Of a DNA stretch of 64,000 bases, positions 6,301 through 49,718 are shown in pieces. How positions within the stretch are numbered: the stretch's first letter is position 1; every line of letters starts with the position of its first letter. The notes under the pieces are model-generated. The model saw only the letters and a list, made by a program, of their open reading frames with translations. It had not been told where the DNA came from and did not search any database. The stretch is from Thermoanaerobaculia bacterium (GTDB lineage Bacteria; Acidobacteriota; Thermoanaerobaculia; Multivoradales; UBA5704), in the NCBI GenBank assembly GCA_044226625.1, contig JBGAGQ010000002.1:32001-96000 (forward strand), written 5' to 3'. The translations under genes were made by a program, and so were the position numbers.

Positions 6301-7626
6301 GCGCTGATCGGCCTGATGATCGCCGTCGGCTCCCGCCTAGCTCAAAGTTTCACCCACCCGATTCGCGAGCTGGTAGCCGGCACCGCGCGCATCGCGGCCG
6401 GGGCGCCCACGCTCGGTTACGCCCCGGCGGAGCTTGAGCTCGCGGCGCTCGCTCGGGCGATCGACGAGATGGCGCGCCGGATCGCCGAAGCGCGCGAAGG
6501 CCTCGTGCGGGAAAAACAGGTGGTCGAGCGGATGATCGAAAACATCACCTCGGGCGTGGTGTCCCTCGACTCGGCGGGACGGGTCTTGCTGCACAACCGG
6601 GTGGCGGCGGACCTTCTGGGCGTCGCCGTGGGGGAGCGGCTCGAGCGCTCGCTCCGCGCCGAACGGCTGGCGCCGGTGCGCGCGTTCCTACGCGAGACCC
6701 GGGTGGGCGAGGCGGCGCGGCGGACGATCCGGTTGGCGCCTCCGCCGGCCGCGCCTTCGCCCGTTGGGGCCGACGAGCGGACGCCGCGCGATCCGTCGTC
6801 CGCCGGCACCGCCGACGCGACAGGCGAGCGCGAATGGACGATCCTTCGCGTTCCGGTGCCCGGCCTCGGCGAGCCGACCGAGCTGCTCGTCGTGGAGGAC
6901 GCGACCGAGGAGCTGCGTGCCCAGCGACTGCTCGCCTGGGCCGAGATGGCCCGAATCATCGCCCACGAGATCAAGAACCCGCTGACGCCGATCCGCCTTT
7001 CGACCGAGCACCTGCGCGAGGTCTGGCGCCGCGATCCCGACCATTTCGAGCCGGTGTTCGAGCGCTGCACCACGAACATCCTCGCCCAGGTGGACGAGCT
7101 GCGGCAGATCGCCCTGGAGTTTTCGACCTACAGCTCGATCCCGCGCATCGATCCGTCGCCGGCCGACCTCGTCGCCGCGATGGGGGAGCTGATCGAGGGG
7201 TACCGAGCGGCGCCGCCGCCAGGGGTCGAGGTGGTGTTCGATCCGCGCGTTCCGAGCCTACCTGCGCGCGTCGACTCGCGGCTGCTCGGTCGGGCGGTGC
7301 GCAACCTGATCGAGAACGCGATCCGCGCCTCGGCGGGAGGGGGGAAGGTGACGCTGCGGCTCGAGGCCGAGAGCTCGCGGACGGGGCCGCAAGCGAAGAT
7401 CGCCGTGCTGGACGAAGGGTCGGGGGTGGAACCGGATCTTCTGCCGCGGATCTTCGATCCGTATTTCTCCACCCACGACACCGGCACCGGGCTCGGTTTG
7501 CCGATCGCCCGCCGGATCGCCGAGGAGCACGGCGGCGAGATCGCGGCGCGGAACCGCCACGATCCTTCCGGCAATCGGTGTGGCCTCGAGGTCGTGATCA
7601 CCCTTCCCGCGTCGACTGCGGACTGA
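3304..7626 (+). CDS. Large multi-TM sensor histidine kinase (NtrY-like HAMP-PAS-HisKA-HATPase C-terminus)
   Basis: Probable GTG start 3304 overlapping the hutU stop (GTGA). Many hydrophobic helices, HAMP '[16 protein letters not shown]', H-box '[17 protein letters not shown]', N-box 'NLIENA', G-boxes 'DEGSG' and 'GTGLGL', F-box 'IFDPYFST'. Confidence 0.9.
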
Positions 7627-10993: not shown

Positions 10994-11140
10994 CTCCACC
11001 CCCAGCTTTCGGGGCGCACGGAAAGAAGAAGTTTCATGCGCTCCCAATCGTGCAGGCTTTGTGATCCATTTTCCCGCCGCTTCTCGCCTTGGGACTCAAT
11101 GGGGTTTCACATCGAGACCGTCTCTCGAGGGAAGGATCCA

Positions 11141-16485: not shown

Positions 16486-19400
16486 ATGCCGGGGAGTGGG
16501 GCGTGGTCATTCGCGGGCCGTCACTTCGGGAGGACGGCGCTGTTCATTCTCGGTTCGGCAAGGATCTTTATGGGAGTCGGTGCGTCAGCCCAGACGGTCT
16601 CACTCCCCGCGACGGCCGACACCTATCTGCGCCAGAGCGCGGCGAACCAGAACCAGGGCCAGGACGTCCTGCTGCACATCCAGCAGAGCGGACACAACCG
16701 GACGCTCGTGGCGATGGACCCCGCTGCGATCGCGGCGGCGGTGGGTACGGGCCATTTGGCCTCGGCGACGCTCGAGCTCTACGTCACCGACAGTACGGCC
16801 TGGGGGACGGCGGGCCGCACGGTCGAGCTCCATCGGATGACGGCGTCTTGGACCGAGAACGGCGCGACCTGGAACTGCGCGGTCGACACGAATCCCGCCA
16901 ACGGCGCGCCGAACTGCTCGACGCAGTGGGATGGCGGGACGTTCGACGACGAGCCGACCGATTCGGTCCTCCACGTCAATACGACGAGCGGCTACGTCGC
17001 CTGGAACGTGACGGAGGACGTTCGGTCGTTCCTCGCCGGGACGCCGAACTACGGCTGGCTCGCCAAGCTCTCGGACGAAACGCTCGGTGGCAACGTGGAT
17101 TACGCGTCGCGGCAGGGGAGCGTGGCCGTCCAGCGTCCGCGGTTGGTGCTGGTGGTCGAAAGCCCTGCTTTCGATCAGGTGCCGCCCACGATCGCGATCG
17201 AGAGCCCTGTCCATCCCTTCGTGATCAACGACACGACGCCCGCGATCTCGATCGCCTACGCCGATTTCGGCAGCGGACTCGCGCTCACGACTCTCGACGT
17301 GAAGGTGGACGGCGTGGCGGCGGTTTGCACGGCGGGCGCTTCGTCGGCGAGCTGCGAGCCGGCGACGCTCGGCGAGGGAGCGCACACGATCGTCGCCACG
17401 GTGCGCGACGTGGCGGGGAACGAAGCGACCGCGACGCGCGGCTTCACCCTGCTGATCGGTCCCGGTCTGCGGACGGCGACGTTTGTCGCGACGGCCGACA
17501 CGACGCTCAAGAAGAGCTCGGCGAACCAGAACTACGGAGATGAGCCGACGCTGCGGCTGCGGCAGAGCGGCAAGAACCGTTCGATCGTGCGATTCGGGAC
17601 GGCCGAGGTGTTGCAGCTGGTGAACCAGGGGACGCTTCGCTCGGCGAGCCTCGAGCTTTTTCTCGGCGTAAGCAGCGGCTGGGGCAAGAGCGGCCGAAAC
17701 GTCGATGCCCACCGGCTGACCGCGGATTGGAGCGAGGGGGGAGCGACCTGGAACTGCGCGATCGATTCGATCCCGAGCAACGGCGCGCCGAACTGCGCGA
17801 CGCAATGGGTCGGTGGCACGTTCGCCGCGGCGCCGACGGCGACGGTACTGCACACCAACGGCCAGTCCGGAACCGTCTCTTTCGACGTCACCGCGGATCT
17901 CGCGGCGGTCGTGGCGGGAGGAACCGACTTCGGCTGGTTGGTGAAGAAGACCGACGAGACGAAGAGCGGCAAGGCGGATTACGCGTCGCGGGAAGCGGGA
18001 GCCGCGACCGCGCCCCGGCTGGTGGTGCTGTTCGAGGTGCCGTCCGGGGGCGACGCCACGCCGCCCGACATCGCGATCGTGCGCCCGGCCGGTACGGTTT
18101 ACAACCAGCATCCGGTGGTCGTCGGCCTGCGCCTCGCCGACGCGGGGTCGGGGATCGACTTCGAAAGTCTCACGGTATCCGTGGGTGGAGTCGACGTCTC
18201 GTCGTACTGCGGTGGCACGGCAGAGGGCTCGGAGTGTCGGTTCTCCGCTCCGGCGCCGGGTCCTCTCGAAATCGCGGCGAGCGTTCGCGATCGAGCCGGC
18301 AACTCGGCTTCGGCTTCGGCCACGTTCGATCTGGTCGACGACCCGAGCCCTCCGGCGATAGACGTCGTCTCGCCGCTTTCGACTTCCCTCACCGAGGGGG
18401 AGATTCCCGCGACGTTCGAGGTGAGCCTCGACGACGCCGGTTCGGGGATCGCACCGGGAAGTTTCGTGGTCACGCTCGATGGCTCCGACCTCTCGGGGTG
18501 CACCCTCGAAACCGCCGGTGCCTCCTGCGCTTTGCCGTCGAATCTCGGCTTGGGAGGGCATCCGCTCGAAGCTTTCGTCCGCGACCGCGCCGACAACCAA
18601 TCCTCCGTCTTCCTGGAGCTCAACGTCGGACCCGAGCCCCACGCGCCAGAGATCGCGGTGACCGGTCCCACCGGGGATCTGATCCACGGACGGACGTTGC
18701 CGGAGCTGGTCATCGAGTACGCAGACGCGCAGAGCGGCATCGACCCCACCTCGTTCCGCCTCGAAGTGGACGGCGTCGAGGCGACCGCCGGATGCGCGGC
18801 CGGTCCGACGTCGGCGACCTGCCCGTCGCGACCGCTCGATCCAGGTCGCCATTCGATCGTCGCCGCGATCTCCGATCACCGCGGCAACGTGGGCTCCGCG
18901 AATCGACAGCTGGAGCTCTCGATCGAGCTTGCGGTTTCGATCACCGAACCGTCGGAAGCGATGTTGGTCCGCAGCGAGACCGTTCGCTTGGCGGGAACCG
19001 TCTCGCCGCTCGCCACGTCGGTGACGGTCGGCTCGATCCCGGCGAGCCTGTCCGGCGGTACCTGGGTGGTCGAGAACCTGCCGTTGCGGGAAGGGGGCAA
19101 CACTCTCACGGTCGTCGCCCGCTCTCCCGCGGGCGGGATCGGATCGGCGACGGCGACGGTGGTCCGAGATACCGAGGCGCCGCGGGTGGTCATCCAGTCG
19201 CCTGCGGACGGCTCGATCTCGTCGGCAGCCGAGGTCTTCGTGAGTGGCGAGGTCATCGATCCCGCTTCGAGCAACGTCGAGCATCCGCCGCTCACCGTGA
19301 CGGTCAACGGCGAGCCCGCGACGGTCGACCTGCGAAGCTTCGTCCTGCCCGAGGAGCTGCTTCATCCGGGCGAGAATCGGATCGAGGTCGAGGCGACGGA

Positions 19401-22400
19401 CACGGCGGGAAACGTCGGCCGGGCTTCCGTCACGGTCTCTTATCTGGCGGACGCTCCTGCGCACGTCGAGCCGATCTCGGGAAATTTTCAGGACGCGGAG
19501 ATCCGACAGGCCGTTCCCGAGCCTCTGGTGGTTCGGGTCGCGGACGCCTTCGGTCGCTCGTTGCCCGGCCGCTCGGTCGAGTTTCGGGTGTCGCGCGGGG
19601 ACGGTTCGGTCGTTTCGTACCCCGACCGAGGCCGGAAGCTGTCGGTGCTCACCGACGAAAACGGTCTGGCCGAGGTGCGCTTCGAGCTCGGCTCCCGTGC
19701 GGGCGCCGGAAACCACGAGGTCACGGTGACCCTGCCCGGAATCCCGGGGGCGGCGGTCTTCTGCGCTTCGGCGCGGGCCGCGAAGGCGAAATGGATCCAG
19801 CCGATCGTCGGCAACGACTTCTCTGGAGAGCGGACCGGCACCGCCGGACGGCCGCTTCCGAAGCCCTTGCTGGTTCAGGTTTTCGACGAGCGTGGCAATC
19901 CGGTCTCGGGAGTCGAGGCCACGTTCGACGCGATCGCCGGTGGGGGGAGCTTCGACGGTCTGCCGCAGGTGCGCCGGGTCACCGATCGCGAAGGGAAGGC
20001 GAGCGCGGTCTATATCCTCGGCCCAGGCGAAGGGACGAACAACAACGTGGTCTCGGCGACGTTTGCGACGAACGAGGCGGCGCCCGCGGTCTTCAGGATC
20101 AGCGGCCGCGTGCCGGGACCTGCCGAGCAGACCTCCGTCTCGGGCATCCTGCTCGATCCGGAGGACGGCCCGATCCCGGGCGCGCGAATTCACGTCGGGA
20201 CTCTCGAAACCCGGACCGACGCCGAAGGGCGTTTTCACCTGACGGGGGTGCCGGTGGGCACCATCCATCTGGAGATCGACGGCTCGACGGTCACCCGGCC
20301 GGGCACTTGGCCGCCGCTCGGCTACGAGCTGGTCACGGTCGCGGGGCGGGACAACGGGGTCGGCAAGCCGCTTCGCTTGCCGCAGATCGACAGCGCGGGC
20401 AAGATGCGGGTCGGCGGCGACCATGACGTGACGATCCCGATCCGCGGGGTGGCGGGAGCGACACTCACGGTCTTCGCCCATTCGGTGACGTTTCCGGATG
20501 GCAGCCACGAGGGCGACGTGGCGTTCACGCAGGTGCCGGCGCAGAAGGTGCCGATGATCGCGCCGATGAACGCCGGATTCATGTTGGCCTGGACGATCCA
20601 GCCGGCGGGCGTCCGCTTCGAACCTCCCGCCCAGGTCTCGATCCCGAATTTCGGTCTCCCCGGAGGAGGCGCCAACGTGCCCGGGATGACCGGCGAGATC
20701 TTCTCTTTCGACCACGATCTCGGAGAGTTCGTGAGCGCGGGCACCGCGTCGATCACCGAGGATGGCCGGATGATGCGCTCGAATCCTGGCATGGGGATCA
20801 CTAAGACCGGCTGGGGTGGCTGCCCGCATCCTCCGGCACCGCCCGCGAGCGCCTGCGGCGAGGGTACCTGCAACGACTGTCTCGGAAACCAGCCGATCGC
20901 GAAGGCAAAGCTCGGACCCGTCGTGGCCAGGGCCAACGGGCGGGACATGCCGAGGTTGGTCCGGAAAGGTGAGCCGGTCAGCTTCACCCTCGACGTCACG
21001 AACCCGCCGTCCTGCGCGCTCGACGTGACGTGGACCTTCGGCGAAGGCTCGCCCGTGAAAGGGGATCCCGGGAGCCCTTACTCCGCGAGCCACACCTTCG
21101 CGAAGGAAGGCGCTTTCACCGTCCAGGTGGAAGCGAAGTGTCCGGAATGCGACGACGGGCCGCAGATCGACACGATCGATCTGGGAGTAATCGACCCGGC
21201 GCCGAGCGAGCTCACGTTCAAAGGAGCCGGTTTCCACGAAGTCCTCCAAGACACCGGGGCCGGAGCCTATAAAGCGCCTCACTGGAAGGACATGAGCAGC
21301 CCGCCGAACGGCACCGCCGAGGACATGGGAGATCACCGCTTTCCGGTCATCTATAAGCGGGGCAGCATGCCGATCGTGGACTTGAAGGTGGACGCCAAAG
21401 CGGCGGGACTGACCGCGACTCTGGTCGCGGACGTGCGGATCCGCGGCGGCGTGACGAGCCCCGCGCTCCATTTCCCCGCGAAGAAGGTCTCTCTCGAAGG
21501 CCGGCTGCTCACGTTGAAAGACCTGGCCTCGGATGCCGCGCTTCCCAACGCGATCGACCGGCTGGATCCGTTCGAGATCTCCTGGGAGATCTCGTTCGAT
21601 GCCGGAAACAGCTGGGAAGATCTGGGCAAGACTTCGAATCGAATCTACGTCACCCTCGACGACCCCCTCCCAGCCGCGGCGGCTTCGCTGTACGAGACGG
21701 TGGTCGACATCGGCAGCCGTAATGCGGCCCACCAGAGCTCGCCCGGTTCGGCGGTCACTGCGATTTTCGAAGATTTCATGGACCGCGTCGTGACTCGAAA
21801 GGAACGCGACGGCTTCAACAGGCCCGACGGCAAGACGATGCAATATTGGTCGACCGACCGCGACCTCAATGAAGTGATTCGGACCGGGGGTTGCCAGCTG
21901 CTCTCGAGGATGATCAATCCCAAGAGCGGCGCCGCCGCGAATCTCAACGGAATCGGAACCTGCCAGGCCTGGGCGGCGCTGCTGCACAGGTCGATCCAAG
22001 CGATGGGCATCGAAGGCTCCCAAGTCTTCGAGGTCAAGCCCGACGTGACCAAGGTACCGAAAGCGTCGTCGATGCTCATCAGCAAGTGGCTGTTCGCGCC
22101 GTTGGTTCGGCCGGGAGCGAACAGGACGCTCGATTCGGAGCCCGACGTATCCCGGGACGAGGTCGATTGCAGCCATGGTCAAACCGGAATCAACCCCGAC
22201 AAGGTCTGTATCTATCCCGGAGAGGATCGCGCCATCGACTCGAACGTCCTGCCGGACGACGTCGTCTCGGACCTTGGGGCGCATCCCGGCGAGCCCTATC
22301 CGTACCGGCTCTTCGATCGAGTCATCTATCGAAAGGGCGATGTGTTCGATCTCGGGAACCATGCGGCGCAAGGAACCGCGGACTCTCCGAGCATCTTCGA

Positions 22401-22599
22401 CAATCACTTCATCATGACGTTCCAGACCCAGGGCGTTTACGACCCGTCGTACGGCCGATGGTTCGCCGATCCGGTGGAGTTCGGCAACCAGTCCGTCGAC
22501 GGTTTCATCATGGAACAGAAAACCCCGGGGCTGCCCACGAGCGCGCGGAAGAAGAGCCAAACCGACAACGAGCTTCTCTTCGTTCCACAGGGCTTCTGA
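16486..22599 (+). CDS. Secreted multidomain protein A: 2x DNRLRE-type domains, Cys-paired Ig repeats, carboxypeptidase-regulatory-like domain, PKD, C-terminal transglutaminase/papain-like domain (putative polymorphic toxin)
   Basis: RBS GGAGG upstream and signal peptide ending ASA|QTV. DNRLRE-like 'ADTYLRQ..ANQN...SATLELY...RPRLV'. Catalytic-like 'GTCQAWAALL' (Cys codon 21961), 'FDNHFIM' (~22396), 'YDPSYG' (~22438). Confidence 0.82.
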   Translation: MPGSGAWSFAGRHFGRTALFILGSARIFMGVGASAQTVSLPATADTYLRQSAANQNQGQDVLLHIQQSGHNRTLVAMDPAAIAAAVGTGHLASATLELYVTDSTAWGTAGRTVELHRMTASWTENGATWNCAVDTNPANGAPNCSTQWDGGTFDDEPTDSVLHVNTTSGYVAWNVTEDVRSFLAGTPNYGWLAKLSDETLGGNVDYASRQGSVAVQRPRLVLVVESPAFDQVPPTIAIESPVHPFVINDTTPAISIAYADFGSGLALTTLDVKVDGVAAVCTAGASSASCEPATLGEGAHTIVATVRDVAGNEATATRGFTLLIGPGLRTATFVATADTTLKKSSANQNYGDEPTLRLRQSGKNRSIVRFGTAEVLQLVNQGTLRSASLELFLGVSSGWGKSGRNVDAHRLTADWSEGGATWNCAIDSIPSNGAPNCATQWVGGTFAAAPTATVLHTNGQSGTVSFDVTADLAAVVAGGTDFGWLVKKTDETKSGKADYASREAGAATAPRLVVLFEVPSGGDATPPDIAIVRPAGTVYNQHPVVVGLRLADAGSGIDFESLTVSVGGVDVSSYCGGTAEGSECRFSAPAPGPLEIAASVRDRAGNSASASATFDLVDDPSPPAIDVVSPLSTSLTEGEIPATFEVSLDDAGSGIAPGSFVVTLDGSDLSGCTLETAGASCALPSNLGLGGHPLEAFVRDRADNQSSVFLELNVGPEPHAPEIAVTGPTGDLIHGRTLPELVIEYADAQSGIDPTSFRLEVDGVEATAGCAAGPTSATCPSRPLDPGRHSIVAAISDHRGNVGSANRQLELSIELAVSITEPSEAMLVRSETVRLAGTVSPLATSVTVGSIPASLSGGTWVVENLPLREGGNTLTVVARSPAGGIGSATATVVRDTEAPRVVIQSPADGSISSAAEVFVSGEVIDPASSNVEHPPLTVTVNGEPATVDLRSFVLPEELLHPGENRIEVEATDTAGNVGRASVTVSYLADAPAHVEPISGNFQDAEIRQAVPEPLVVRVADAFGRSLPGRSVEFRVSRGDGSVVSYPDRGRKLSVLTDENGLAEVRFELGSRAGAGNHEVTVTLPGIPGAAVFCASARAAKAKWIQPIVGNDFSGERTGTAGRPLPKPLLVQVFDERGNPVSGVEATFDAIAGGGSFDGLPQVRRVTDREGKASAVYILGPGEGTNNNVVSATFATNEAAPAVFRISGRVPGPAEQTSVSGILLDPEDGPIPGARIHVGTLETRTDAEGRFHLTGVPVGTIHLEIDGSTVTRPGTWPPLGYELVTVAGRDNGVGKPLRLPQIDSAGKMRVGGDHDVTIPIRGVAGATLTVFAHSVTFPDGSHEGDVAFTQVPAQKVPMIAPMNAGFMLAWTIQPAGVRFEPPAQVSIPNFGLPGGGANVPGMTGEIFSFDHDLGEFVSAGTASITEDGRMMRSNPGMGITKTGWGGCPHPPAPPASACGEGTCNDCLGNQPIAKAKLGPVVARANGRDMPRLVRKGEPVSFTLDVTNPPSCALDVTWTFGEGSPVKGDPGSPYSASHTFAKEGAFTVQVEAKCPECDDGPQIDTIDLGVIDPAPSELTFKGAGFHEVLQDTGAGAYKAPHWKDMSSPPNGTAEDMGDHRFPVIYKRGSMPIVDLKVDAKAAGLTATLVADVRIRGGVTSPALHFPAKKVSLEGRLLTLKDLASDAALPNAIDRLDPFEISWEISFDAGNSWEDLGKTSNRIYVTLDDPLPAAAASLYETVVDIGSRNAAHQSSPGSAVTAIFEDFMDRVVTRKERDGFNRPDGKTMQYWSTDRDLNEVIRTGGCQLLSRMINPKSGAAANLNGIGTCQAWAALLHRSIQAMGIEGSQVFEVKPDVTKVPKASSMLISKWLFAPLVRPGANRTLDSEPDVSRDEVDCSHGQTGINPDKVCIYPGEDRAIDSNVLPDDVVSDLGAHPGEPYPYRLFDRVIYRKGDVFDLGNHAAQGTADSPSIFDNHFIMTFQTQGVYDPSYGRWFADPVEFGNQSVDGFIMEQKTPGLPTSARKKSQTDNELLFVPQGF
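16591..18030 (+). repeat. Copy 1 of duplicated N-terminal block (partner ~23808-25245)
   Basis: Long near-identical DNA stretches, e.g. 'gacgtcctgctgcacatccagcagagc' at 16663 and 23880 (offset 7217). Confidence 0.9.
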
Positions 22600-22603
22600 C
22601 GCG

Positions 22604-23587
22604 ATGGGTCCCTCCATGATCGCCTGTTATTTCGCGGCCCTGCTGATCCTCGCGCCTCCGGCTCCGGCCGGGGCCACGAGAGAGCCGGAGATTCTCTCCA
22701 GCCAAAGCGCAGGCGCCGAGGGGAAGGTTTGGGTGCTGGAGCTTCGCGAAAGCCGGGAATCGGGCTCCCGATTCGAGCTTTTCCAGCGTTTCCGGAACGG
22801 CAAGAAATCGCCGACGTTGTGGTCGAAAGAGGTCTCCGTCATGACCCGGCCGTACGTCGAATATTGGCGTGCGACCTTTGCCGTAAACCCGGACGGCGGG
22901 TCGGCTTGGGTCGCCTCCCTCCGCTCGACGAGCGGGACGTTGGCGATCGATCTGGATCTCCTCGTCTCGGGCGGTTCTCCGACGGCAACTCGCCGCATCG
23001 ACATCCGTCGTGCGAGCTCCGGCGTTTGTCGTCCCGAGCTCTTTTCGATCGTCGCGACCGGTGAGGAGGCGCTGATCGGGCTTCGCTGCGGTGGACCGAC
23101 GCGATGGATCGGATATTCGGAGCGAGAGCACGACTGGTTCCAGCTGGGTCCGGAGCGACGAAAGGTTGCGGGCCGTTCCGGCAGCGGCAAACTGGTCGAC
23201 GGTTGGCCGAAGGATGACGGCGTGCCCATCGATCCCAACGCCGACTGGCCGCCGCCGAAGATCGCCATCGTCGAGCCGTCGCGGGAAGTCGTTTCCGATC
23301 CGAATTTCTCGAGCGTCGTCCTGTCTTATGAGGATCCCGACGATCCGATCGATCCTTCGTCGCTCAAGGTCGGAATCGACGGCGTTCCTCTGTCCTGCAC
23401 CTTCGGCTTCGCCAAGATCACCTGCGCCGTCGAGAACCTCGAAGAGGGCTTTCACACCCTCTCGGCGGAGATCCGTAGCCGATCCGATTATTGGGCCACT
23501 ACGGCGTTCAACTTCATCTATCGACCGGACGCGGGGTCTCCGCCGTCGGCGGTCGGTGGCGGACCGCCGGTTGGAACGGTTCCTTGA
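22604..23587 (+). CDS. Secreted hypothetical protein with a C-terminal Ig repeat like those of proteins A/B; candidate immunity protein for A
   Basis: Starts 4 nt after the A stop; signal peptide (MIACYFAALLILAPPAPAGA). C-terminal 'PPKIAIVEP...IDPSSLKVGIDG..LSC.......C....LEEGFHTLSAEIR'. Confidence 0.7.
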   Translation: MGPSMIACYFAALLILAPPAPAGATREPEILSSQSAGAEGKVWVLELRESRESGSRFELFQRFRNGKKSPTLWSKEVSVMTRPYVEYWRATFAVNPDGGSAWVASLRSTSGTLAIDLDLLVSGGSPTATRRIDIRRASSGVCRPELFSIVATGEEALIGLRCGGPTRWIGYSEREHDWFQLGPERRKVAGRSGSGKLVDGWPKDDGVPIDPNADWPPPKIAIVEPSREVVSDPNFSSVVLSYEDPDDPIDPSSLKVGIDGVPLSCTFGFAKITCAVENLEEGFHTLSAEIRSRSDYWATTAFNFIYRPDAGSPPSAVGGGPPVGTVP

Positions 23588-23726
23588 CCCCTCGCTCGCT
23601 GCCGCCGTGGTCGTCCTCGACCGTACCGATCGGCGCCGTATGACACCGATCAAGATTTCGATAGCCCCGTGGCGAGGTGTAGGGCTACCTTCCATGCTCG
23701 GTCTGTCGGTCTTGGGAGGGCGTCCT

Positions 23727-26700
23727 ATGGCGGGTTCCGGATTGCGAAGGGCGGTGGGTCTTCTTGCGGCCGCGGTGGCCCTCCTCGCGGGCGGGAGGGC
23801 GTCGGCTCAAACGGTCTCGATCCCCGCGACGGCTGATACCTACCTGCGCCAAAGCTCGGCGAATCAAAACCAAGGCCAAGACGTCCTGCTGCACATCCAG
23901 CAGAGCGGCCACAACCGGACGCTCGTGGCGATGGACCCCGCGGCGATCGCTTCCGCCGTGGGGACCGGGCACCTGGCCTCGGCGACGCTCGAGCTCTACG
24001 TCACCGACAGCACGGCGTGGGGGACGGCGGGCCGCACGGTCGACCTCCACCGGATGACGGCGCCTTGGACCGAGAACGGCGCGACCTGGAACTGCGCGGT
24101 CGACACGAATCCCGCCAACGGCTCTCCGAATTGCGCGACGCAGTGGGACGGCGGAACGTTCGACGACGAGCCGAGCGACTCGGTCCTCCACCTGAATACG
24201 ACGAGCGGCTACGTCGCCTGGAACGTGACGGAGGACGTTCGGTCGTTCCTCGCCGGGACGCCGAACTACGGCTGGCTCGCGAAGCTCTCGGACGAGACGC
24301 TCGGTGGCAATGTGGATTACGCGTCGCGGCAGGGGAGCGTGGCCGTCCAGCGTCCGCGGTTGGTGCTGGTGGTCGAAAGCCCTACTTTCGATCAGGTGCC
24401 GCCCACGATCGCGATCGAGAGCCCCGACCATCCGTTCGTGATCAACGATGCGACGCCCGCGATCTCGATCGCCTACGCCGATTTCGGCAGCGGACTCGCG
24501 CTTACGACGCTCGACGTGAAGGTGGACGGCATGGCGGCGGTTTGCACGGCGGGCGCTTCGTCGGCGACGTGTGAGCCGGCGGCGCTCGGCGAAGGCACGC
24601 ATACGATCGTCGCCAAGGTGCGCGACGCAGCGGGGAACGAAGCGACCGCGACGCGCGGCTTCACCCTTCTGATCGGTCCGGGTCTGCGGACGGCGACGTT
24701 CGTCGCGACGGCCGACACGACCCTCAAGAAGAGCTCGGCGAACCAGAACTACGGCGGCGAGGCGACGTTGCGGCTGCGGCAGAGCGGCAAGAACCGTTCG
24801 CTCGTGCGTTTCAATACGACCGAGGTCTTACAGCTGGTTAGCCAGGGCACGCTCCGCTCTGCGTTTTTGGAGCTGACGCTCCAGGTGAGCAGCGGATGGG
24901 GGACGGCGGGGCGGCCGATCGACGTGCACCGGCTGACCGGGGACTGGAATGAGGCGGGCGCGACCTGGAACTGCGGGATCGACTCGATCCCGACCAACGG
25001 CGCGCCGAACTGCGCAACCCAGTGGGCGGGCGGTACGTTCGCCACACCGACGGCGACGGTGGTGCACAGGAACGGGCAGCTGGGGACCGTATCGTTCGAC
25101 GTGACCTCGGACCTCGCGGCCATCGTGGCGGGGGGGAGCGACTACGGCTGGTTGGTGAAAAAGACGGACGAGACGAAGAGCGGGCGGGCGGACTACGCAT
25201 CGCGCGAGACTGGAGCGGCGAACGCGCCGCGCCTGGTCGTGGTGGTCGACGTGCCGGACGGCGGGGGCGATACGACGCCGCCGACGATCGCGATTACGGC
25301 GCCAACGTCGGCGCTGATCTTCAACGTTTCGACCCCGGAGATTCGAGTGGAGTACTCCGATGTGGGTTCGGGGCTCGCCCTGGCGAGCCTGCGCGTCTCG
25401 ATCGACGGCTCGGTCCTCACGGGCTGCTCGGTCGGTGCCGCGGCCGCGACCTGCGCGCCGAGCTCCTTGGCGGACGGTAGCCACCTCGTCGAGGCCGAGA
25501 TCGCCGACGCGGCCGGAAACCGTGGCTCGGCTGGTGCGAGCTTCACGATCACGCGGGACGACGATCCGCCGACGATCGACATCGTGGCGCCGGAAGGAAC
25601 GCTTTTCAACCCCTCCGCGACCGAGATCAGCGTCGAATTCACCGACGAGCTATCGGGGATCGACGTTGGCGGTCTCGCCGTCTCGATCGACGGCGCGACG
25701 CTCGGGGGGTGCGCCGTCACCGAGTCGACCGCGACTTGCGCCGCGGGATCGCTCGCCGCGGGTACCCACGTGATCCGCGCCGAAGTTCACGATGGCGCCG
25801 GTAACCTCGCGAGCGCGGTCGAGAACGTGGAGATCGTGCGCGATACGGAGGCTCCAATCCTTGCGATCACGTCGCCGCCTGTGGCTGGGAGCACCGCCGG
25901 TGCCGTGAGCGACCTCGAGGTCACGTTCGCCGACGCGGGCTCTGGGGTGGCGATCGAGACGTTCCGCGCGACCGTGGACGGCGTCGTGCTGTCGAGCTGC
26001 GCCACGTCGCTCAGCGGTGCGGCCTGTACGCTTTCGAGCCTCGGACCGGGCAGCCATTCGATCGCGGTCGAGATCGCAGACCAGGCGGGCAATCATGGAA
26101 CCGCCAGTCGTGACCTCTCGGTGGCGCCGGAGCGGGTCGCGCCGTTCCTGCGGATTCTCGCGCCGACGGGAGCTCCCATCGACGGTGGACAGATCCCCGC
26201 CATCGAGCTCGCCTACGGCGATGCGCAAAGCGGTATCGATTCCGCCTCGCTCCGCGTCACGCTCGACGAGCGGGACGTCACCTCGTCTTGCCAGGCGGGG
26301 TTGACCTCGGCCCACTGTGGCCCGCAATTCGTTGGTTCCGGCGCGCATACGATCGTCGCCGAAATCTCCGACACGTTGGGAAATCCGGCGCGGGCGCTGC
26401 TCGACGTGACCACTTCCTTGGCGCTTTCGCTCGCGATCACCGCGCCGGAAAGCGGTGCGATCGTTCGAGAACCGACAGTTCGTCTGGCAGGGACCGTTTC
26501 GCCGCAGGCGACATCCGTGTCAGTGGGCGACGTACCGGCGCAGGTGAGCGGAGGCCTTTGGGTCCTACCGGCGATGCCGATCCGCGAGGGGGGCAATACC
26601 CTCACCGTCGTCGCTCGGTCGCCACAGGGAGGCGTCGGAACCGCGACCGTCGCGATCATCCGCGACTCCGAAGCACCTCGGGTAGCGATCCTCACTCCAC

Positions 26701-29700
26701 GCGACGGTTTCGTCACCAGCGCCTCGCAGATCGTCGTCTCGGGCGATCTGGTCGACGCGGTCTCGACTTCGTCGAAACAGCGCGCGCTCAAGGTTCTGGT
26801 CAACGAGCGCGAGGCGACGGTCGAGCGGAAGAGCTTCGTGCTCACCGACCACTTGCTGCTGCCGGGTGAGAATCGGATCGAGGTGACGGCGGAAGACGAG
26901 GCGGGCAACGTCGGCCGCTCGGCGGTCACGGTGCGCTACGTGCCCGATGCGCTGGCGCGGATCGAGGAGATCTCCGGCAATTTCCAGGAGGCCGAGAGCC
27001 GCGACACGCTCGACCAACCGCTGGTGGTGCGGGTGGTCGACTTCCTCGGGCGTCCGCTCGCGGGGCGGACGGTCGATTTCGCGGTCACGCGAGGCGACGG
27101 CGCGGTGCTGTCGTTCCCGGACGCCGCGCGCCGGCTCTCGGCGGTGACCGACGAAGAAGGGCTCGCGGCGATGCGCTTCGCGCTCGGCACGCGGGCCGGC
27201 GCGGGCAACCACGAGGTGACGGTGAGCTCGGTGGGGATTCCGGGCTCGGTGCTGTTTTGCGCCTCGGCGCGGCCGAAAGCGGCCAAGGACATCCACCCGA
27301 TCGTTGCGACCGACTTCCAGGGGGCAAAGACGGGCCCGGCGGGGCAGGCTCTGCCGAAGCCGCTGTTCGTCCAAGTGTTTGACGGCTTCGGCAATCCGGT
27401 GGCGGGGCAGGCGGTGGTGTTCCGTTCGGTCGAAGGGGGCGGCACGTTCGCCGGCGCCTCCGAGCTGCGGGCGACGACCGATGACGAAGGCAAGGCCGGA
27501 GCGGTGCTCACGCTCGGTCCCGACGAGGGGATCAACAACAACCGGGTGGAAGCGAGCCTGGAGGGCTCGACGGTGCTGCCGGCGGCGTTCGTGATCAGCG
27601 GCATGATTCCAGGGCCGGCGGAGCTGACCGCGCTTTCCGGGATCGTTCTCGATCCGAGCGACGCGCCGGTGCCCGGAGCGCGGATCCACATCGGCTCGAA
27701 CGTGACGCTCACGGACGCCGAAGGGCGGTTTCGCTTGAACGGCGTGCCGGTGGGCACGGTGCACGTCGAGATCGACGGCTCGACGGTGACGCGTCCGGGG
27801 ACCTGGCCGCCGCTCGGCTACGAGCTGGTGATGATCTCCGGGCGGGTGAACGACCTGGGCAAGCCGATGCGTCTGCCGCAGATCGACGACGCGGGAAAGA
27901 AACGTGTCGGCGGCGACCAGGACGTGACGATTCCTATCCAAGGCGTGGCGGGCGCGACGCTCACGGTTTACGCCCACTCGGTTACGTTCCCGGACGGGAG
28001 CCACGAAGGGGACGTGGCGTTCACCCAGGTGCCTGCGCAAAAGGTGCCGATGGTGGCGCCGCAGGACGCGGGATTCATGTTGGCTTGGACGATTCAACCG
28101 GCGGGGGTTCGTTTCGATCCGCCGGCGCGGGTGTCGATCCCGAACTTCGGGGCTCCGGGAGGCGGCGGCAATCCGCCGGGATTGACCGGAGAGATCTTCT
28201 CGTTCGATCACGATCTCGGGGAGTTCATCAGCGCGGGGACGGCTTCGATCACGGAAGACGGCCGGATGATGATGTCGAACCCGGGAATGGGGATCTCGAA
28301 GACGGGCTGGGGGGGCTGTCCGCATCCGCCGGCGCCGCCGGCGCAGGCCTGCGGCTCGGGAACCTGCACGATCTGCCCCGCGGATGGCGGTCCGCCGGTA
28401 TCGAACTGCGGGGCCTGTCAGGTATGCACGGATCAAGGCTGTCGAGATCGCAAGATCGACAGCGTCACCGCCGAAGGTGAACCGATCGATCCGGACGCGC
28501 CGGCCGGTGCCTCTTTACTTCAGCCGAACGACGGTGGCGGAGACGGCCAGGCGCAGGAGCCGGTCTATGTCGGGGAAGGGGAGCCTCTGCGTCTGCTGTC
28601 GGACCGGCTCCGAGGCGATTGCCCTTCCGGGCAGATCAACGCGACTTGGTCGTTCGGCGACGGTTCCGAACCCAAGGATGGGCGAACGGTCGAGCACACC
28701 TATGACGAAGAGGGCGAACACATGGCCGAAGTGCGCCTGGAGTGCGTCTGCCCCACGACGCTCAAGGCGGCTGGGCCTCCGGTGACCGACTCGATCGGCA
28801 TTCAGGTCGTCAAAGCGATGGATGGCTTCTACAAAATGATCGAGAAGGAAGAGAAGCTCACCATCGTCGACAAGGACGAGGACGGAGACGGCAAGAAGGA
28901 CAACTTCTTCCGGGTCCTGGGGGGCGCGCGGTTGCGTCTCGAGCTCAATCCGCCGGCCGTACTTCAGGCGCAGGTTACGGAGTACCGGTGGCAGGTCGAC
29001 GAAGAAGACGGTCACGGCGGCTTCTACGACGGCTACAGCCCTAATGCCAACGGGCTGCATGACGAGCAGCTCAAGGGACCGGACTTGCGCCAAATCTACT
29101 GGCAATCGCCGGATGGCGTGAACAAAGACTTTTTCATCGACGTGTACCTCAAGCTGCGCGATGTCGAGGCTCCTCTGCACCTTCGCCGCCGGGTCAAGAC
29201 GCGCGTTCTAGCGGCCGGCGTCGAAGATGGCGACGATGTGAAGATGCTTCAATCGCAACTGCGTCTCTTCGGCTTCACCGGCGGCACGACGCCCGGCTAT
29301 GCGGGAACGCCGATCAACCCGGACGGCAACTTCGGCGGAAAGACGACGCGCGGCGTGATGCGCTTTCAAGACGTCGATGATCTCGCGACTTCCGGCGTGG
29401 TGATGGATGACACGTTGATCCAGCTCGCTCGGCACTGGCGGGATTTCTACTATGCCTATGAAGCGTTTCCCAACGATCCGAGGATCGACAAGTTCCATTC
29501 GGACTTCGAAACTTGGGTGACCGCCGCCGCGGACGATCTCGCCATGACCTACACCGACGCCGTGGTCCAGATTCTGCGTCCTGGAACGGCGGGGGACGAC
29601 GGGCGCAAGGACTTGATCCGGGCGTGGGCAAGGCAGGAGTCCGACCAGGGTCAGTGGGGCTACGGCGGTCACAACTTCCGTATCACCATGGGGGCCGCGG

Positions 29701-30458
29701 ACGAGGAAGGAAGTATCGGGTTCGATCAGATCGTCAACACCCACAAGTACGGAACGCTTAACATTGCCTCGATCGAGGATCTGAACCTCTACCACCCGAA
29801 GGACAACGTTCGGGGGTTCGCCGTCTTCTCTGCCGACCACGATGCCGAGGCCAAGAGCGGCGGGGGATTCCACAAAGGTTTCGGCGACGGCAGCTACACG
29901 ACCAGCGGCCATCCGACGGACTATCCCCGGCTTGCGAACTACACCGACGATACCAGGGCGATCCTGTTGAAATCGGTGATGGCGTACAACCGCGGGTCGG
30001 GGGACAGCGCCGCACTGCGTGAACCGTGGGCGGACATGTTGAGGAACTACGACGCCTTGCCGGCGAACACGAAGATGCACGGCCGGCGGTCGGCGATGCG
30101 TTACGCGCTGGACGTGACCGCGAGAGGCGGCGTGGGCCACGGTTGTTTCAACTGGATCGAGAAGGTGATCACCACCGGCCCCGACGACAAGTGCGACTCG
30201 ACCCGAGCCGGCTCGGACGTCAGCGTGGCGACCCTGCAACCTGGAGTGAAAAATCAGGTCTGCATCTATCCGGGAGTTCAAACTCTCAACCTTGGCAACC
30301 GCCAGCACGACGTCCGGCGCATCGCCAACCTCCATTCTGCGGCCGACGCCAACGACCACATGACGACATGGACCTACTCCTATTGCGAATCGGAATGGCT
30401 CGCGCTGACGACCTGGGAAGTCCGTCGCTTGCAACAACTTCCCGCCATCTTGCCGTGA
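23727..30458 (+). CDS. Secreted multidomain protein B: paralog of A with peptidoglycan-binding domain + lytic transglycosylase (SLT-like) C-terminus (putative polymorphic toxin)
   Basis: RBS GGGAGGG, ATG 23727, signal MAGSGLRRAVGLLAAAVALLAGGRASA|QTV. PG-binding 'GDDVKMLQSQL...DGNFGGKTTRGVMRFQ...SGVV'; SLT-like motifs 'LIRAWARQES', 'GSIGFDQI', 'NLYHPKDNV', 'MAYNRG'. Confidence 0.83.
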   Translation: MAGSGLRRAVGLLAAAVALLAGGRASAQTVSIPATADTYLRQSSANQNQGQDVLLHIQQSGHNRTLVAMDPAAIASAVGTGHLASATLELYVTDSTAWGTAGRTVDLHRMTAPWTENGATWNCAVDTNPANGSPNCATQWDGGTFDDEPSDSVLHLNTTSGYVAWNVTEDVRSFLAGTPNYGWLAKLSDETLGGNVDYASRQGSVAVQRPRLVLVVESPTFDQVPPTIAIESPDHPFVINDATPAISIAYADFGSGLALTTLDVKVDGMAAVCTAGASSATCEPAALGEGTHTIVAKVRDAAGNEATATRGFTLLIGPGLRTATFVATADTTLKKSSANQNYGGEATLRLRQSGKNRSLVRFNTTEVLQLVSQGTLRSAFLELTLQVSSGWGTAGRPIDVHRLTGDWNEAGATWNCGIDSIPTNGAPNCATQWAGGTFATPTATVVHRNGQLGTVSFDVTSDLAAIVAGGSDYGWLVKKTDETKSGRADYASRETGAANAPRLVVVVDVPDGGGDTTPPTIAITAPTSALIFNVSTPEIRVEYSDVGSGLALASLRVSIDGSVLTGCSVGAAAATCAPSSLADGSHLVEAEIADAAGNRGSAGASFTITRDDDPPTIDIVAPEGTLFNPSATEISVEFTDELSGIDVGGLAVSIDGATLGGCAVTESTATCAAGSLAAGTHVIRAEVHDGAGNLASAVENVEIVRDTEAPILAITSPPVAGSTAGAVSDLEVTFADAGSGVAIETFRATVDGVVLSSCATSLSGAACTLSSLGPGSHSIAVEIADQAGNHGTASRDLSVAPERVAPFLRILAPTGAPIDGGQIPAIELAYGDAQSGIDSASLRVTLDERDVTSSCQAGLTSAHCGPQFVGSGAHTIVAEISDTLGNPARALLDVTTSLALSLAITAPESGAIVREPTVRLAGTVSPQATSVSVGDVPAQVSGGLWVLPAMPIREGGNTLTVVARSPQGGVGTATVAIIRDSEAPRVAILTPRDGFVTSASQIVVSGDLVDAVSTSSKQRALKVLVNEREATVERKSFVLTDHLLLPGENRIEVTAEDEAGNVGRSAVTVRYVPDALARIEEISGNFQEAESRDTLDQPLVVRVVDFLGRPLAGRTVDFAVTRGDGAVLSFPDAARRLSAVTDEEGLAAMRFALGTRAGAGNHEVTVSSVGIPGSVLFCASARPKAAKDIHPIVATDFQGAKTGPAGQALPKPLFVQVFDGFGNPVAGQAVVFRSVEGGGTFAGASELRATTDDEGKAGAVLTLGPDEGINNNRVEASLEGSTVLPAAFVISGMIPGPAELTALSGIVLDPSDAPVPGARIHIGSNVTLTDAEGRFRLNGVPVGTVHVEIDGSTVTRPGTWPPLGYELVMISGRVNDLGKPMRLPQIDDAGKKRVGGDQDVTIPIQGVAGATLTVYAHSVTFPDGSHEGDVAFTQVPAQKVPMVAPQDAGFMLAWTIQPAGVRFDPPARVSIPNFGAPGGGGNPPGLTGEIFSFDHDLGEFISAGTASITEDGRMMMSNPGMGISKTGWGGCPHPPAPPAQACGSGTCTICPADGGPPVSNCGACQVCTDQGCRDRKIDSVTAEGEPIDPDAPAGASLLQPNDGGGDGQAQEPVYVGEGEPLRLLSDRLRGDCPSGQINATWSFGDGSEPKDGRTVEHTYDEEGEHMAEVRLECVCPTTLKAAGPPVTDSIGIQVVKAMDGFYKMIEKEEKLTIVDKDEDGDGKKDNFFRVLGGARLRLELNPPAVLQAQVTEYRWQVDEEDGHGGFYDGYSPNANGLHDEQLKGPDLRQIYWQSPDGVNKDFFIDVYLKLRDVEAPLHLRRRVKTRVLAAGVEDGDDVKMLQSQLRLFGFTGGTTPGYAGTPINPDGNFGGKTTRGVMRFQDVDDLATSGVVMDDTLIQLARHWRDFYYAYEAFPNDPRIDKFHSDFETWVTAAADDLAMTYTDAVVQILRPGTAGDDGRKDLIRAWARQESDQGQWGYGGHNFRITMGAADEEGSIGFDQIVNTHKYGTLNIASIEDLNLYHPKDNVRGFAVFSADHDAEAKSGGGFHKGFGDGSYTTSGHPTDYPRLANYTDDTRAILLKSVMAYNRGSGDSAALREPWADMLRNYDALPANTKMHGRRSAMRYALDVTARGGVGHGCFNWIEKVITTGPDDKCDSTRAGSDVSVATLQPGVKNQVCIYPGVQTLNLGNRQHDVRRIANLHSAADANDHMTTWTYSYCESEWLALTTWEVRRLQQLPAILP
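23808..25245 (+). repeat. Copy 2 of duplicated N-terminal block (partner ~16591-18030)
   Basis: See copy 1. A second homologous block links ~18630-20870 with ~26130-28367. Confidence 0.9.
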
Positions 30459-30465
30459 GGAAACG

Positions 30466-31341
30466 ATGATGATCCCCGGTCTCCGAATGCTCGCTTCCGG
30501 GCTCGTGCTGGCGGTCGCGCCGGCTGTCGTGGCTCCGGCGCCTCAAAGCGATAGTGGTTACTCCTTGCCGCGGGTCGCAGAGACCTCTGCGTCACGCGGC
30601 AACGCGAGCCCCCCTTCCGTCGCGGCGATCCACCCCGCTACCGATTCGGTCGCATCGATCGAGATTCTCAATCCCGCCGCCGGACGGTGGCGGCTGGTCC
30701 TTCGATCAGGCCAGACCGAGAGCGTTCTGAGCGAGGTTCCAAAGGACGAGGCGGAATACGTGGTGTCGGGGCCTTTTCTCGCCAGCTTTCCGGTCGGTCC
30801 CTCGTCCGGCCTGGAGGCCTTCGTCTGGCAGTACGTGGTCGGATCGGGATTGCGTTACGAGGATTACCGCACGACCTACCTCGTGCTGTGCTTGCTGGAT
30901 CGCGGCCACCCGATCGGTTCGTGCCAGACGCAGAAAGTGGCCGAAACATCGATCCATAAGGAAGTCCACTCTCAGCCGGAGGACGTCTGGCTGTATTGGT
31001 CGGCGGATGCGGATCGGCCCACGCGGGCGACCGAAAGTGACGTCCGGCTTCTCGTGCGCGACGGCGACGGCGACGGATTCGACGACCTCGTGATCTGGCG
31101 GCGAACGTGCGGCGCGCTCGCGATCGCCGACTCGGCCGCGCGCGAGCGCGACCCCAAGACGTTCGAGGGCAAAGTCGAGTGCAACCTCGATTTCGTCCTC
31201 GAACGCGACGAACGACTTTGGATGCGTTTCGATCCGACCCACCGGACGTTCGAGGCGCCGACTTTGAACGACAAGCTGCCGGTTCCGAACCGCGATCTCT
31301 GGAATCGGCTGCCGAACGTCGGACACCTTTCGGTGCGGTGA
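30466..31341 (+). CDS. Secreted hypothetical protein; candidate immunity protein for B
   Basis: Starts 7 nt after the B stop with RBS GAGGA; signal peptide; one 'DGDGDGFDDLVI' Ca-binding/FG-GAP-like loop; four Cys; no visible similarity to 22604-23587. Confidence 0.72.
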   Translation: MMIPGLRMLASGLVLAVAPAVVAPAPQSDSGYSLPRVAETSASRGNASPPSVAAIHPATDSVASIEILNPAAGRWRLVLRSGQTESVLSEVPKDEAEYVVSGPFLASFPVGPSSGLEAFVWQYVVGSGLRYEDYRTTYLVLCLLDRGHPIGSCQTQKVAETSIHKEVHSQPEDVWLYWSADADRPTRATESDVRLLVRDGDGDGFDDLVIWRRTCGALAIADSAARERDPKTFEGKVECNLDFVLERDERLWMRFDPTHRTFEAPTLNDKLPVPNRDLWNRLPNVGHLSVR

Positions 31342-31517
31342 TGACCTGCTTGGGGTCTGTCGGTCGGAGGCGAACACGCCTACGCCTACGTTCGATCTCA
31401 ACGCCGGGTCCCTGGTGAGGGTCGAATGGGAACGTGCTGGCGGTGGCGAGCCGTAGTTGGGCGGGAGCGTTCTCGCAGTCGAAATTCTTTGGCGTGTTGC
31501 GTGATGGAGGATTGATC

Positions 31518-49607: not shown

Positions 49608-49718
49608 GGACTTCTCCCTGAGCGTCATGAGGCTCCTCGTGGAGCCTCGCGGTGTCCTGCTCAAGGTTGATCCCGGCCCCGACCGAAAGGGTTAGATAGG
49701 CCCCGCTCCACCGCTGTA

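Follow-up and report, generated by a model that had tools for sequence, protein, structure and literature searches.

Here we describe two tandem genes, A and B, carried by a 64,000-nucleotide stretch of the genome of a Thermoanaerobaculia bacterium (Acidobacteriota; assembly GCA_044226625.1, contig JBGAGQ010000002.1, positions 32,001 to 96,000 of the forward strand; hereafter the window), and the domain that both proteins place at the junction between a long, adhesin-like stalk and a variable C-terminal tip. The junction domain belongs to the ZU5/GAIN-B fold class in a predicted model and occurs as a single copy at a fixed position. Homology between relatives ends shortly past an invariant tryptophan within it, and beyond this point the tip and the downstream open reading frame (ORF) co-vary. 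Judged by their sequences, proteins of the A/B type behave like polymorphic surface effectors of diderm bacteria. On balance, the domain is probably a non-catalytic ZU5/GAIN-B-like adaptor with which the constant stalk ends, and which marks the boundary for the exchange of cassettes of tip plus partner in such effectors.

Gene A (16486..22599) is an ORF of 2037 amino acids (aa) on the + strand, as are all features of the pair given below. It encodes, in order, a signal-peptide-like N terminus, two CBM96/DNRLRE domains, Big_13-type immunoglobulin (Ig) repeats, Glucodextran_B, Big_1, a CarboxypepD_reg-like domain (20134..20280; Pfam PF13620, E 4.7e-08), directly 3' of this the ZU5/GAIN-B-like β-sandwich (20386..20832; residues ~1301–1449, ~150 residues), a Pro/Cys-rich linker (20821..20880; CPHPPAPPASACGEGTCNDC), a PKD domain (20953..21138; Pfam PF00801, E 2.7e-08) and a unique tip (21199..22596). 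The motif KTGWGGC (20803..20823) contains the invariant tryptophan W1443 (codon 20812–20814; hereafter W, from which positions such as W+30 are counted), which opens the last β-strand. Gene B (23727..30458) encodes 2243 aa from the start called in its protein database entry, the longest open frame being 23091–30458. Its stalk has the same architecture, including the hydrophobic signal-peptide-like N terminus and the PKD domain, and its tip differs: the ZU5/GAIN-B-like domain (27882..28328; Trp codon 28308–28310) is followed by a longer Pro/Cys linker with 8 Cys (28317..28454) and by a tip that contains PG_binding_1 (29229..29417; Pfam PF01471, E 1.3e-07 / 2e-08). Each gene is followed at a distance of a few nucleotides by a small ORF with a signal-peptide-like start: 327 aa, 5 nucleotides past A and ending in an Ig-like repeat (22604..23587), and 291 aa, 8 nucleotides past B (30466..31341).

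The starting point was a sequence-only reading of the segment 20560–20880, which had taken it for the best-conserved late part of A and B and for a possible release or recombination site. The segment reads in frame 1 as the peptide described there and corresponds to A residues 1359–1465, but it holds only the C-terminal ~90 residues of the domain together with the linker; the whole domain spans ~20386–20832. Its conservation is confirmed: identities number 71 and 70 in the two 80-column alignment blocks that cover A 1301–1460, against 13 in the block after them. 'Best conserved' applies to the late half of the two proteins only, the N-terminal ~320 residues being more alike (88–98% aa identity). 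The B copy, which had been placed at ~28070–28367, was recovered by tblastn at 27705–28376 (85.3% identity over 224 aa, E 6e-114), and a tblastn search of the window with A ~1239–1479 gave no other significant match, the remaining ten listed having E values of 0.35–9.2. The Cys/Pro-rich linker that had been described after the segment is present as well, and identity between A and B drops just past '...CPHPPAPPA.ACG.GTC'.

Within the junction domain, A and B share 85–92% identity at the protein level and 78–84% at the DNA level, with matches at four-fold degenerate sites ranging from 4/12 to 13/22 per segment compared. Since the protein is more conserved than the DNA and its synonymous sites, strong purifying selection acts on the domain. 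Recent gene conversion was considered as a cause of the conserved junction and rejected, because most synonymous sites in the domain have diverged, which those at the 5' ends have not. There, the 5' thirds of the genes (16600–17560 versus 23840–24800; A codons ~41–360, B codons ~245–565 of the long frame) are 89–98% identical in DNA, and four-fold sites match at 15/16 and 18/18, with the rest of the genes much more diverged. These near-identical four-fold sites point to recent homogenisation, by gene conversion or by a duplication limited to the CBM96/Big_13 end.

Fold and family of the junction domain

An AlphaFold2 model of the domain, built from a 29-sequence alignment taken from genome loci, is all-β with 11 strands (mean predicted local distance difference test (pLDDT) 81.8; predicted template-modelling score 0.76). 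Foldseek placed the ankyrin ZU5 domain 3ud2_B at the top (E 3e-3, probability 1.00), with UNC5b, GAIN domains and NLRP1 next. In the re-aligned Foldseek list, ranks 1–16 are all ZU5, GAIN or FIIND domains, with carbohydrate-binding sandwiches at roughly half their score. Two VIA-align lists agree: ankyrin ZU5 or GAIN domains fill the top five places of each (with entries that are not identical) and the first nine of the re-aligned list. Against 48,161 representative chains, VIA-align scores were highest for AnkB ZU5 (9.8; root mean square deviation (r.m.s.d.) 3.4, 121 residues aligned), ZU5-ANK 3f59_A (9.3; r.m.s.d. 2.9, 124 aligned, covering the whole domain on both sides) and 3ud1 (9.2), then the GAIN domains of BAI3 (8.2), CD97 (7.8) and CELSR1 (7.2), and lower for UNC5b (6.2), CARD8 (5.8), ZO-1 ZU5 (5.6), the rat NLRP1 FIIND (4.9) and Nup98 (3.9). 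The predicted model is thus superposable on solved ZU5 domains over its whole length, and its fold is GAIN-B-like in the same sense.

Sequence comparison points the same way at lower strength. A profile of 29 relatives searched against 177,635 PDB sequences ranked ankyrin-3 ZU5A and ZU5B first, at an E of only 0.094, and aligned the segment 'iqPaGatfdpPapvtfP' with both, so that the conserved 'P.G..F..P...P' strand is present. Of all Pfam families, ZU5 (PF00791) was matched by the largest number of relatives, at a sub-threshold level (4/29, best E 0.0011; in a second set 2/20, best E 0.0023). The ZU5-like fold proposed from the sequence alone has therefore stood up, with Pfam matches that are sub-threshold and structure lists headed by ankyrin ZU5 and GAIN domains; the structure prediction and Foldseek comparison that had been suggested as a check returned the ZU5/GAIN/FIIND class and not an unrelated fold. 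Membership of the junction domain in the ZU5/GAIN-B/FIIND fold class is well supported by the model.

The family is very large. An exhaustive search of a library of 1.84 billion representatives (clusters at 50% identity) retrieved 3,097 clusters at E<=0.001, 1,705 at <=1e-10 and 312 at <=1e-30, numbers that place the junction signal far beyond chance. A word-indexed search with the domain gave 91 proteins of 1,120–3,565 aa, each with one significant domain match, and a family profile found a single copy in 222/222 retrieved proteins, with a median of 343 residues after it. The domain is matched in 21 of the 401 genomes searched in the phylum. A pattern scan of one genome per species confirmed 310 relatives from 390 pattern matches, and the hosts of the best 80 of these 310 comprise Acidobacteriota, Gemmatimonadota, Myxococcota, Verrucomicrobiota, Entotheonella, Nitrospirales, Methylomirabilota, Binatia and Alpha-, Gamma- and Zetaproteobacteria. 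Strains of Granulicella, Alteromonas, Microbulbifer and Glaciecola are among the carriers. CarboxypepD_reg (PF13620) lies directly upstream of the ZU5-like domain in 20/20 relatives scanned; the two form a conserved two-domain unit. The present analysis gives a name and a fold to this family, which has no above-threshold Pfam or NCBIfam match and holds a fixed position in giant surface proteins of diderm bacteria. For many relatives (P0013, P0019, P0025, P0041 and others), the protein database lists PF27332.1 and PF26198.1, which it does not list for A.

The source genome has three copies of the domain: A, B and one on contig 47 (16285–16743), which is of the 'WHCG' type. Adjacent pairs of domain genes on one contig are also found elsewhere, at contig 95 of the same-genus genome G266 (4016–4525 and 6600–7097) and at the locus L086 (two matches in different frames), and tandem duplication of junction-domain genes seems common.

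Exchange boundary, tips and downstream ORFs

Protein and DNA homology ends 11–31 codons past the invariant tryptophan in comparisons among paralogues and orthologues. When identity was followed along sequences anchored at W in 17 pairs, it amounted to 80–100% through the segment W+0..30 and then fell to 6–40% in non-orthologous pairs; in the pairs presumed to be orthologous, namely P0008/P0011, P0016/P0017, P0016/P0019 and, to some extent, P0002/P0007, it stays at 40–90% past that segment. The paralogues P0011/P0012, encoded on one contig, are 83–100% identical for 300 aa up to W+30 and at most 40% identical thereafter. P0009/P0012 (83–96% before the boundary, 13–33% after it) and A/B themselves (83–96% before, at most 33% after) behave alike. 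At the DNA level, blastn against contig 52 of G266 showed that the homology of A to both genes of a tandem pair ends at 20846 (W+11 codons), and that B stops matching the non-orthologous gene at 28402 (W+31) but matches its orthologue throughout. Across 197 proteins, with tails taken from W+40 onwards, tails were homologous in 18/35 pairs with a domain identity of at least 90%, in 30/85 at 80–90% and in 90/382 at 70–80%. A constant stalk with unrelated C termini among close relatives, a pattern typical of polymorphic toxin systems, is thus found here, and the recombination site of the sequence-only reading is borne out as an evolutionary pattern, the breakpoints clustering after the GW motif.

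The segment immediately past W is a linker of distinctive composition. It has a median of 8 Cys in W+1..+60, compared with none within the domain in 172/222 proteins, and a median of 5 Pro in W+1..+15. In the AlphaFold2 model, the linker (residues 166–186) has pLDDT values below 50 and is predicted to be disordered. Linkers sometimes match the Dicty_CTDC repeat, and this points to a folded spacer, knotted by disulfides, more than to a loop for cleavage.

Beyond the linker, the tips are diverse. Among 40 tails scanned, 5 have RHS repeats (4 of these with DUF6531) and 20 have no Pfam family; the others include PKD, Reprolysin_4, PLA2G12-like, DUF6973, Laminin_G_3, He_PIG and Big_2, and a scan of 20 full-length relatives adds Peptidase_M15_3, Polysacc_deac_1 and PG_binding_1. 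In one relative from Verrucomicrobiota (L057), the junction domain is followed by a Reprolysin_4 tip. The tip of A has no Pfam family and only 2 relatives among the proteins of 1,120–3,565 aa, and its AlphaFold2 model, based on a 3-sequence alignment, is unusable (pLDDT 30.1). It is 27% identical over 475 aa to the C terminus (residues 1216–1605) of the 1655-aa protein P0230, the scaffold of which consists of ~11 PKD-like 'DWGDG' repeats and DUF11 and has no junction domain. The three known members all keep Cys255, His403 and Asp415 (tip numbering), which suggests that tip A is an uncharacterised Cys-His-Asp enzyme carried on different scaffolds. PDB sequence searches gave a best E of 0.16 for tip A and of 0.06 for tip B, the latter only in its PKD part, and the sole NCBIfam match of tip B lies in the PG-binding region (a SleB model, E 0.001, far below cut-off). 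For apparent SLT-like motifs in tip B (ES, G.DQ, AYNxG) we make no claim, Pfam having given no SLT match at E<=0.01.

The downstream ORF changes with the tip. Over its full length, the ORF that follows B shares 45.6% identity with its counterpart downstream of the G266 orthologue of B, and the 327-aa ORF after A is unrelated to the 567-aa ORF after a differently tipped G266 gene. In the other phyla, a same-strand ORF of at least 80 aa starts within -30..+150 nucleotides at 66 of 69 loci whose tail is complete; 52 of these 66 have a signal- or transmembrane-like start, and they fall into 35 similarity clusters. Homologous downstream ORFs accompany 33/65 pairs of loci with homologous tails and 51/2,015 other pairs, counts that involve related genomes and overstate independence. 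Together with the end of homology past W, this co-variation identifies the junction as a module-exchange boundary. Neither of the small ORFs after A and B has a Pfam or NCBIfam family. The ORF after A is a candidate for the cognate partner or immunity protein of tip A. The Ig-like module at its end is 30–35% identical to Big_13-type repeats of A, B and the G266 genes, and by this likeness the protein may bind or mimic the stalk, instead of or besides conferring immunity.

From these elements an explanation can be assembled. The CarboxypepD_reg-like and ZU5-like domains would be the last constant module of a long adhesin-like stalk. They are followed by a proline-rich, usually 8-Cys linker and then by an exchangeable C-terminal part, which is PKD plus tip in A and B and comprises enzymes, toxin-like domains or DUF6531-RHS elsewhere. 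A and B would represent two alleles of one design in tandem, each with its own small secreted protein 5–8 nucleotides on. In structural terms the domain probably acts as an adaptor that presents the tip, and in evolution its coding sequence and that of the linker probably formed the 5' boundary of the tip-plus-partner cassettes that were exchanged. With its fixed place at the tip-exchange boundary, the family can be used to search poorly studied bacteria of soil and sea for new pairs of effector and immunity protein.

The surroundings of the pair are of the same kind, and the A/B locus is an island of giant, secreted-type surface proteins. On one side lies a 1721-aa protein (11036–16201) with 10 Big_9/cadherin-like repeats, and on the other a 5191-aa protein (31434–47009) that contains Big_7, 6 CarboxypepD_reg domains and 23 or more TSP3 repeats of the bacterial type. 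The giant genes are followed closely by a gene on the - strand (47067–49664) for a metalloprotease of 865 aa, which is reprolysin-like (M12B) and also has a PKD domain. A scan of 12 flanking ORFs found no secretion-system gene.

The tryptophan turn and self-cleavage

GAIN, MAIN, FIIND and Nup98 domains cut themselves in the turn before the last strand, at a motif of the form His/Ser-hydrophobic-Ser/Thr. Rat NLRP1 is cut at F968|S969, with H942 as the catalytic histidine; the NLRP1 triad is E1195/H1186/S1213, and the distal catalytic histidine of NLRP1 and CARD8 lies 27 residues before the cut. A human NLRP1 ZU5 fragment, which ends at the P1 residue F1212, aligns with our model up to residue 149, and rat NLRP1 851–978 aligns with model residues 11–162, which puts S969 near residue 153 if the end is free of gaps. 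These alignments place the equivalent bond between model residues ~149 and 154, the I-T-K-T-G-W turn, so that in the model the GW motif does appear to occupy the place of the cut in GAIN, FIIND, Nup98 and MAIN domains, as had been suspected.

The residues in this turn are of another kind. Among the 222 relatives, W is invariant (222/222), as is the glycine at position -6 (222/222), and the glycine before W is kept in 220. W is followed by G in 137 relatives, by H in 66 and by S in 5; at position -2 the counts are A 126, S 65 and T 17, and at position -4 they are T 85, V 35 and S 27. Motifs in 217 near relatives are WGGC (49), WHGC (31), WHCG (17), WGGA (15) and WGGG (14), and those in 80 wider loci are WHCG (36), WGGC (11) and WHGC (5). 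The His-X(hydrophobic)-Ser/Thr motif is absent from A and B, which have K-T-G-W-G-G-C in its place, and is not conserved in the 222 relatives; among the motif types, only WHGC presents a His-x-nucleophile pattern. Given this replacement, the canonical GAIN/MAIN/FIIND chemistry of self-cleavage is probably not at work in the domain of A and B, and the sequence does not bear out the proposed release site. The suggestion that the domain might be a functional analogue of the Rhs core end has fared no better, nothing here resembling the Rhs aspartyl-protease core. Reading 'S[DN]PG' as an Rhs-like DPxG aspartyl-protease site was rejected, because the motif sits in a β-turn within the sandwich, 11 residues upstream of W, and homology breaks off only downstream of W.

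Self-cleavage with non-canonical residues is nevertheless the most serious of the rival explanations, although we judge it unlikely. In such a module of the MAIN/GAIN/FIIND type, H1410 would activate a Thr at -4 or -2 or the Cys at +3 (G-G|C-P). The cut, likewise unlikely on our reckoning, would fall before the last strand, and that strand would hold the tip until force, contact or reduction of the linker disulfides freed it. The position of the GW turn in the NLRP1 alignments is what this explanation calls for, as is a distal histidine kept in 220/222 relatives as in the NLRP1 triad, and WHGC or WHCG motifs occur in both sets of relatives. Bacterial GAIN-like domains can also behave in this way: MAIN domains such as that of Bacillus subtilis YfkN are GAIN-B-like, cut themselves at HFS and have fragments that stay associated, according to a preprint (Brogan & Rudner, bioRxiv 10.64898/2026.05.12.724683). 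Moreover, ZU5 autopeptidases have been predicted in RHS toxins (Zhang, de Souza, Anantharaman, Iyer, Aravind 2012; PMC3482391), and RHS repeats occur in 5/40 of our tails. Against it stands the lack of any conserved nucleophile position, since T/S is found at -4 in 112/222, S/T at -2 in 82/222 and S at W+1 in only 5/222, and 111/217 near relatives have no Cys at +2 or +3. KTGW and KAGW alternate in close orthologues of A and B, which themselves have no His beside W. Where a Cys is present at W+2 or W+3, the commonest number of Cys downstream is 7, giving an even total of 8 that would fit a disulfide role, a weak argument from parity because the counts of the other group are also mostly odd.

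Alternatively, a separate protease or a reductive step might free the tip at the exposed Pro/Cys linker, with the ZU5-like domain merely a stable stump, which we regard as improbable. The predicted disorder and the Pro- and Cys-rich composition of the linker speak for it, as does the reprolysin-like metalloprotease gene on the opposite strand (47067–49664); but no protease gene is consistently linked, as far as the neighbourhood in the window and 3 kilobases per side of 79 other loci extend, and the Dicty_CTDC matches favour a folded spacer. It is slightly more improbable still that the ZU5/GAIN likeness is convergent and that the domain is a generic ligand- or carbohydrate-binding sandwich unrelated to processing or tip exchange. 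All ZU5 sequence matches are sub-threshold, which speaks for convergence; yet ZU5, GAIN and FIIND domains hold every one of the first sixteen structural ranks at about twice the score of carbohydrate-binding sandwiches, two independent sequence searches rank ZU5 first, and the strict stalk/tip position (single copy in 222/222, linker always next) is left unexplained by binding alone.

Several points weigh against a non-catalytic adaptor at an exchange boundary. On the side of catalysis, experimentally verified microbial GAIN-like domains do release surface proteins (10.64898/2026.05.12.724683). The histidine of the FDHD motif (H1410 in A), 33 residues before W and kept in 220/222, resembles the distal histidine of NLRP1. 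In A and B themselves, positions -4 and -2 are Thr and position +3 is Cys; Cys occurs at W+2 or W+3 in 106/217 near relatives, and WHCG, WGGC and WHGC together make up 52/80 of the wider loci. Non-cleavage is itself deduced from missing residues rather than observed. On the side of the fold, Foldseek gave zero matches at E<=0.001. Every match to Pfam ZU5 was below the threshold for formal membership, the window's own copy matched no Pfam family at E<=10, and the 186-aa junction piece had no NCBIfam match at E<=0.1. On the side of exchange, the recombination site is an evolutionary pattern and not a demonstrated mechanism, and the relatedness of the genomes tempers the co-variation counts. The synonymous-site data show that A and B did not exchange tips recently, and no orphan tip cassette lies within the window, where there is no further copy of the junction (the genome having only 3 copies).

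Comparison with known systems

The closest bacterial counterparts of the junction family are the MAIN domains and the ZU5 domains of polymorphic toxins. MAIN domains share the GAIN-B/ZU5-type sandwich, the setting in very large surface proteins with signal peptides and adhesion, enzymatic or toxin domains, some of them RHS, and a conserved motif in the turn before the last strand. They differ in keeping HX(S/T) and cleaving there, whereas the junction family has K-[AST]-G-W-[GH] in this turn and no conserved His-X-Ser/Thr. MAIN proteins, mostly from Bacillota, are arranged as cargo, MAIN domain and C-terminal wall anchor; the junction family has diderm hosts, a long N-terminal stalk, a variable C-terminal cargo with no anchor after it, and a constant CarboxypepD_reg partner and Cys linker. 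No sortase, SLH or other anchor family was found in 40 tails or 20 full proteins, in which 180–1,800 aa follow the linker. The preprint on MAIN domains mentions neither Acidobacter*, ZU5 nor CarboxypepD.

The earlier work of Zhang and colleagues (PMC3482391) united ZU5, GPS and Nup98 domains and predicted ZU5 autopeptidases not only in RHS toxins but also in other surface proteins. Its ZU5 class resembles the junction family in occurring in large secreted proteins, in lying N-terminal to RHS in some, and in having polymorphic C termini and adjacent small genes. It is defined there by a C-terminal CxH thiol-autopeptidase motif and linked to export of the SpvB/TcdB-TcaC type, whereas the junction family has G-W-[GH], a constant CarboxypepD_reg and no SpvB that we have seen. 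Literature searches on ZU5 with Rhs and on bacterial ZU5/GAIN autoproteolysis found no experimental study of such a form. The junction family is a motif-less, reverse-polarity form of the known bacterial ZU5/MAIN class, and it extends in this direction a class of microbial GAIN-like domains that has only recently been verified. The Rhs/YD core end, a DPxG aspartyl autoprotease, is similar in that it separates a constant part, which serves delivery, from a polymorphic tip at the C terminus, but its fold is different and there is no Rhs core here.

Among eukaryotic domains, the ZU5 domains of ankyrin, UNC5 and ZO-1 (PF00791) are, with FIIND, the best structural matches. They share the 'P.G..F..P...P' strand and likewise lack the cleavage motif. 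FIIND (NLRP1/CARD8) shares with the junction family a histidine ~30 residues upstream of the cleavage-equivalent turn. In contrast to both, the junction family is extracellular and bacterial, falls below the Pfam threshold and has no UPA or death domain and no S/H-F-S motif.

The same order of two domains, CarboxypepD_reg followed by a ZU5-like domain (20083–20850 in A; 20/20 constructs), is found in the ectodomain of the animal proteins FAM171A1/A2, in which a carboxypeptidase-regulatory-like domain precedes a ZU5-like domain in what was recently described as a novel architecture (bioRxiv 10.1101/2025.09.18.675241). FAM171 proteins are type-I membrane proteins that form trimers, whereas the junction family is bacterial, and the word 'bacteria' does not occur in that preprint. 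Weak sequence matches exist, all sub-threshold: PF10577 (FAM171A1-2-B_N) in 3/29 relatives (best E 0.0037) and in 1/20, and PDB entry 9y63 at E 0.11 and 0.27. The pair of domains may be a bacterial counterpart of this family of neuronal surface proteins. A bolder proposal, which we hold to be a long shot, is that the FAM171 ectodomain has in this pair a widespread bacterial counterpart, from which it may even derive, and that in the diderm surface effectors the pair acts as a reverse-polarity latch of the GAIN/FIIND type. A non-canonical cut beside the tryptophan (distal His plus Thr or Cys) would leave the tip held by the last strand and the linker disulfides, and contact or shear would free it onto a neighbouring cell. 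Were such a latch real, it would amount to a new route of polymorphic-toxin delivery that needs no dedicated secretion machine. Apart from any latch, the two-domain order shared with animal FAM171 provides a lead on the origin of that architecture.

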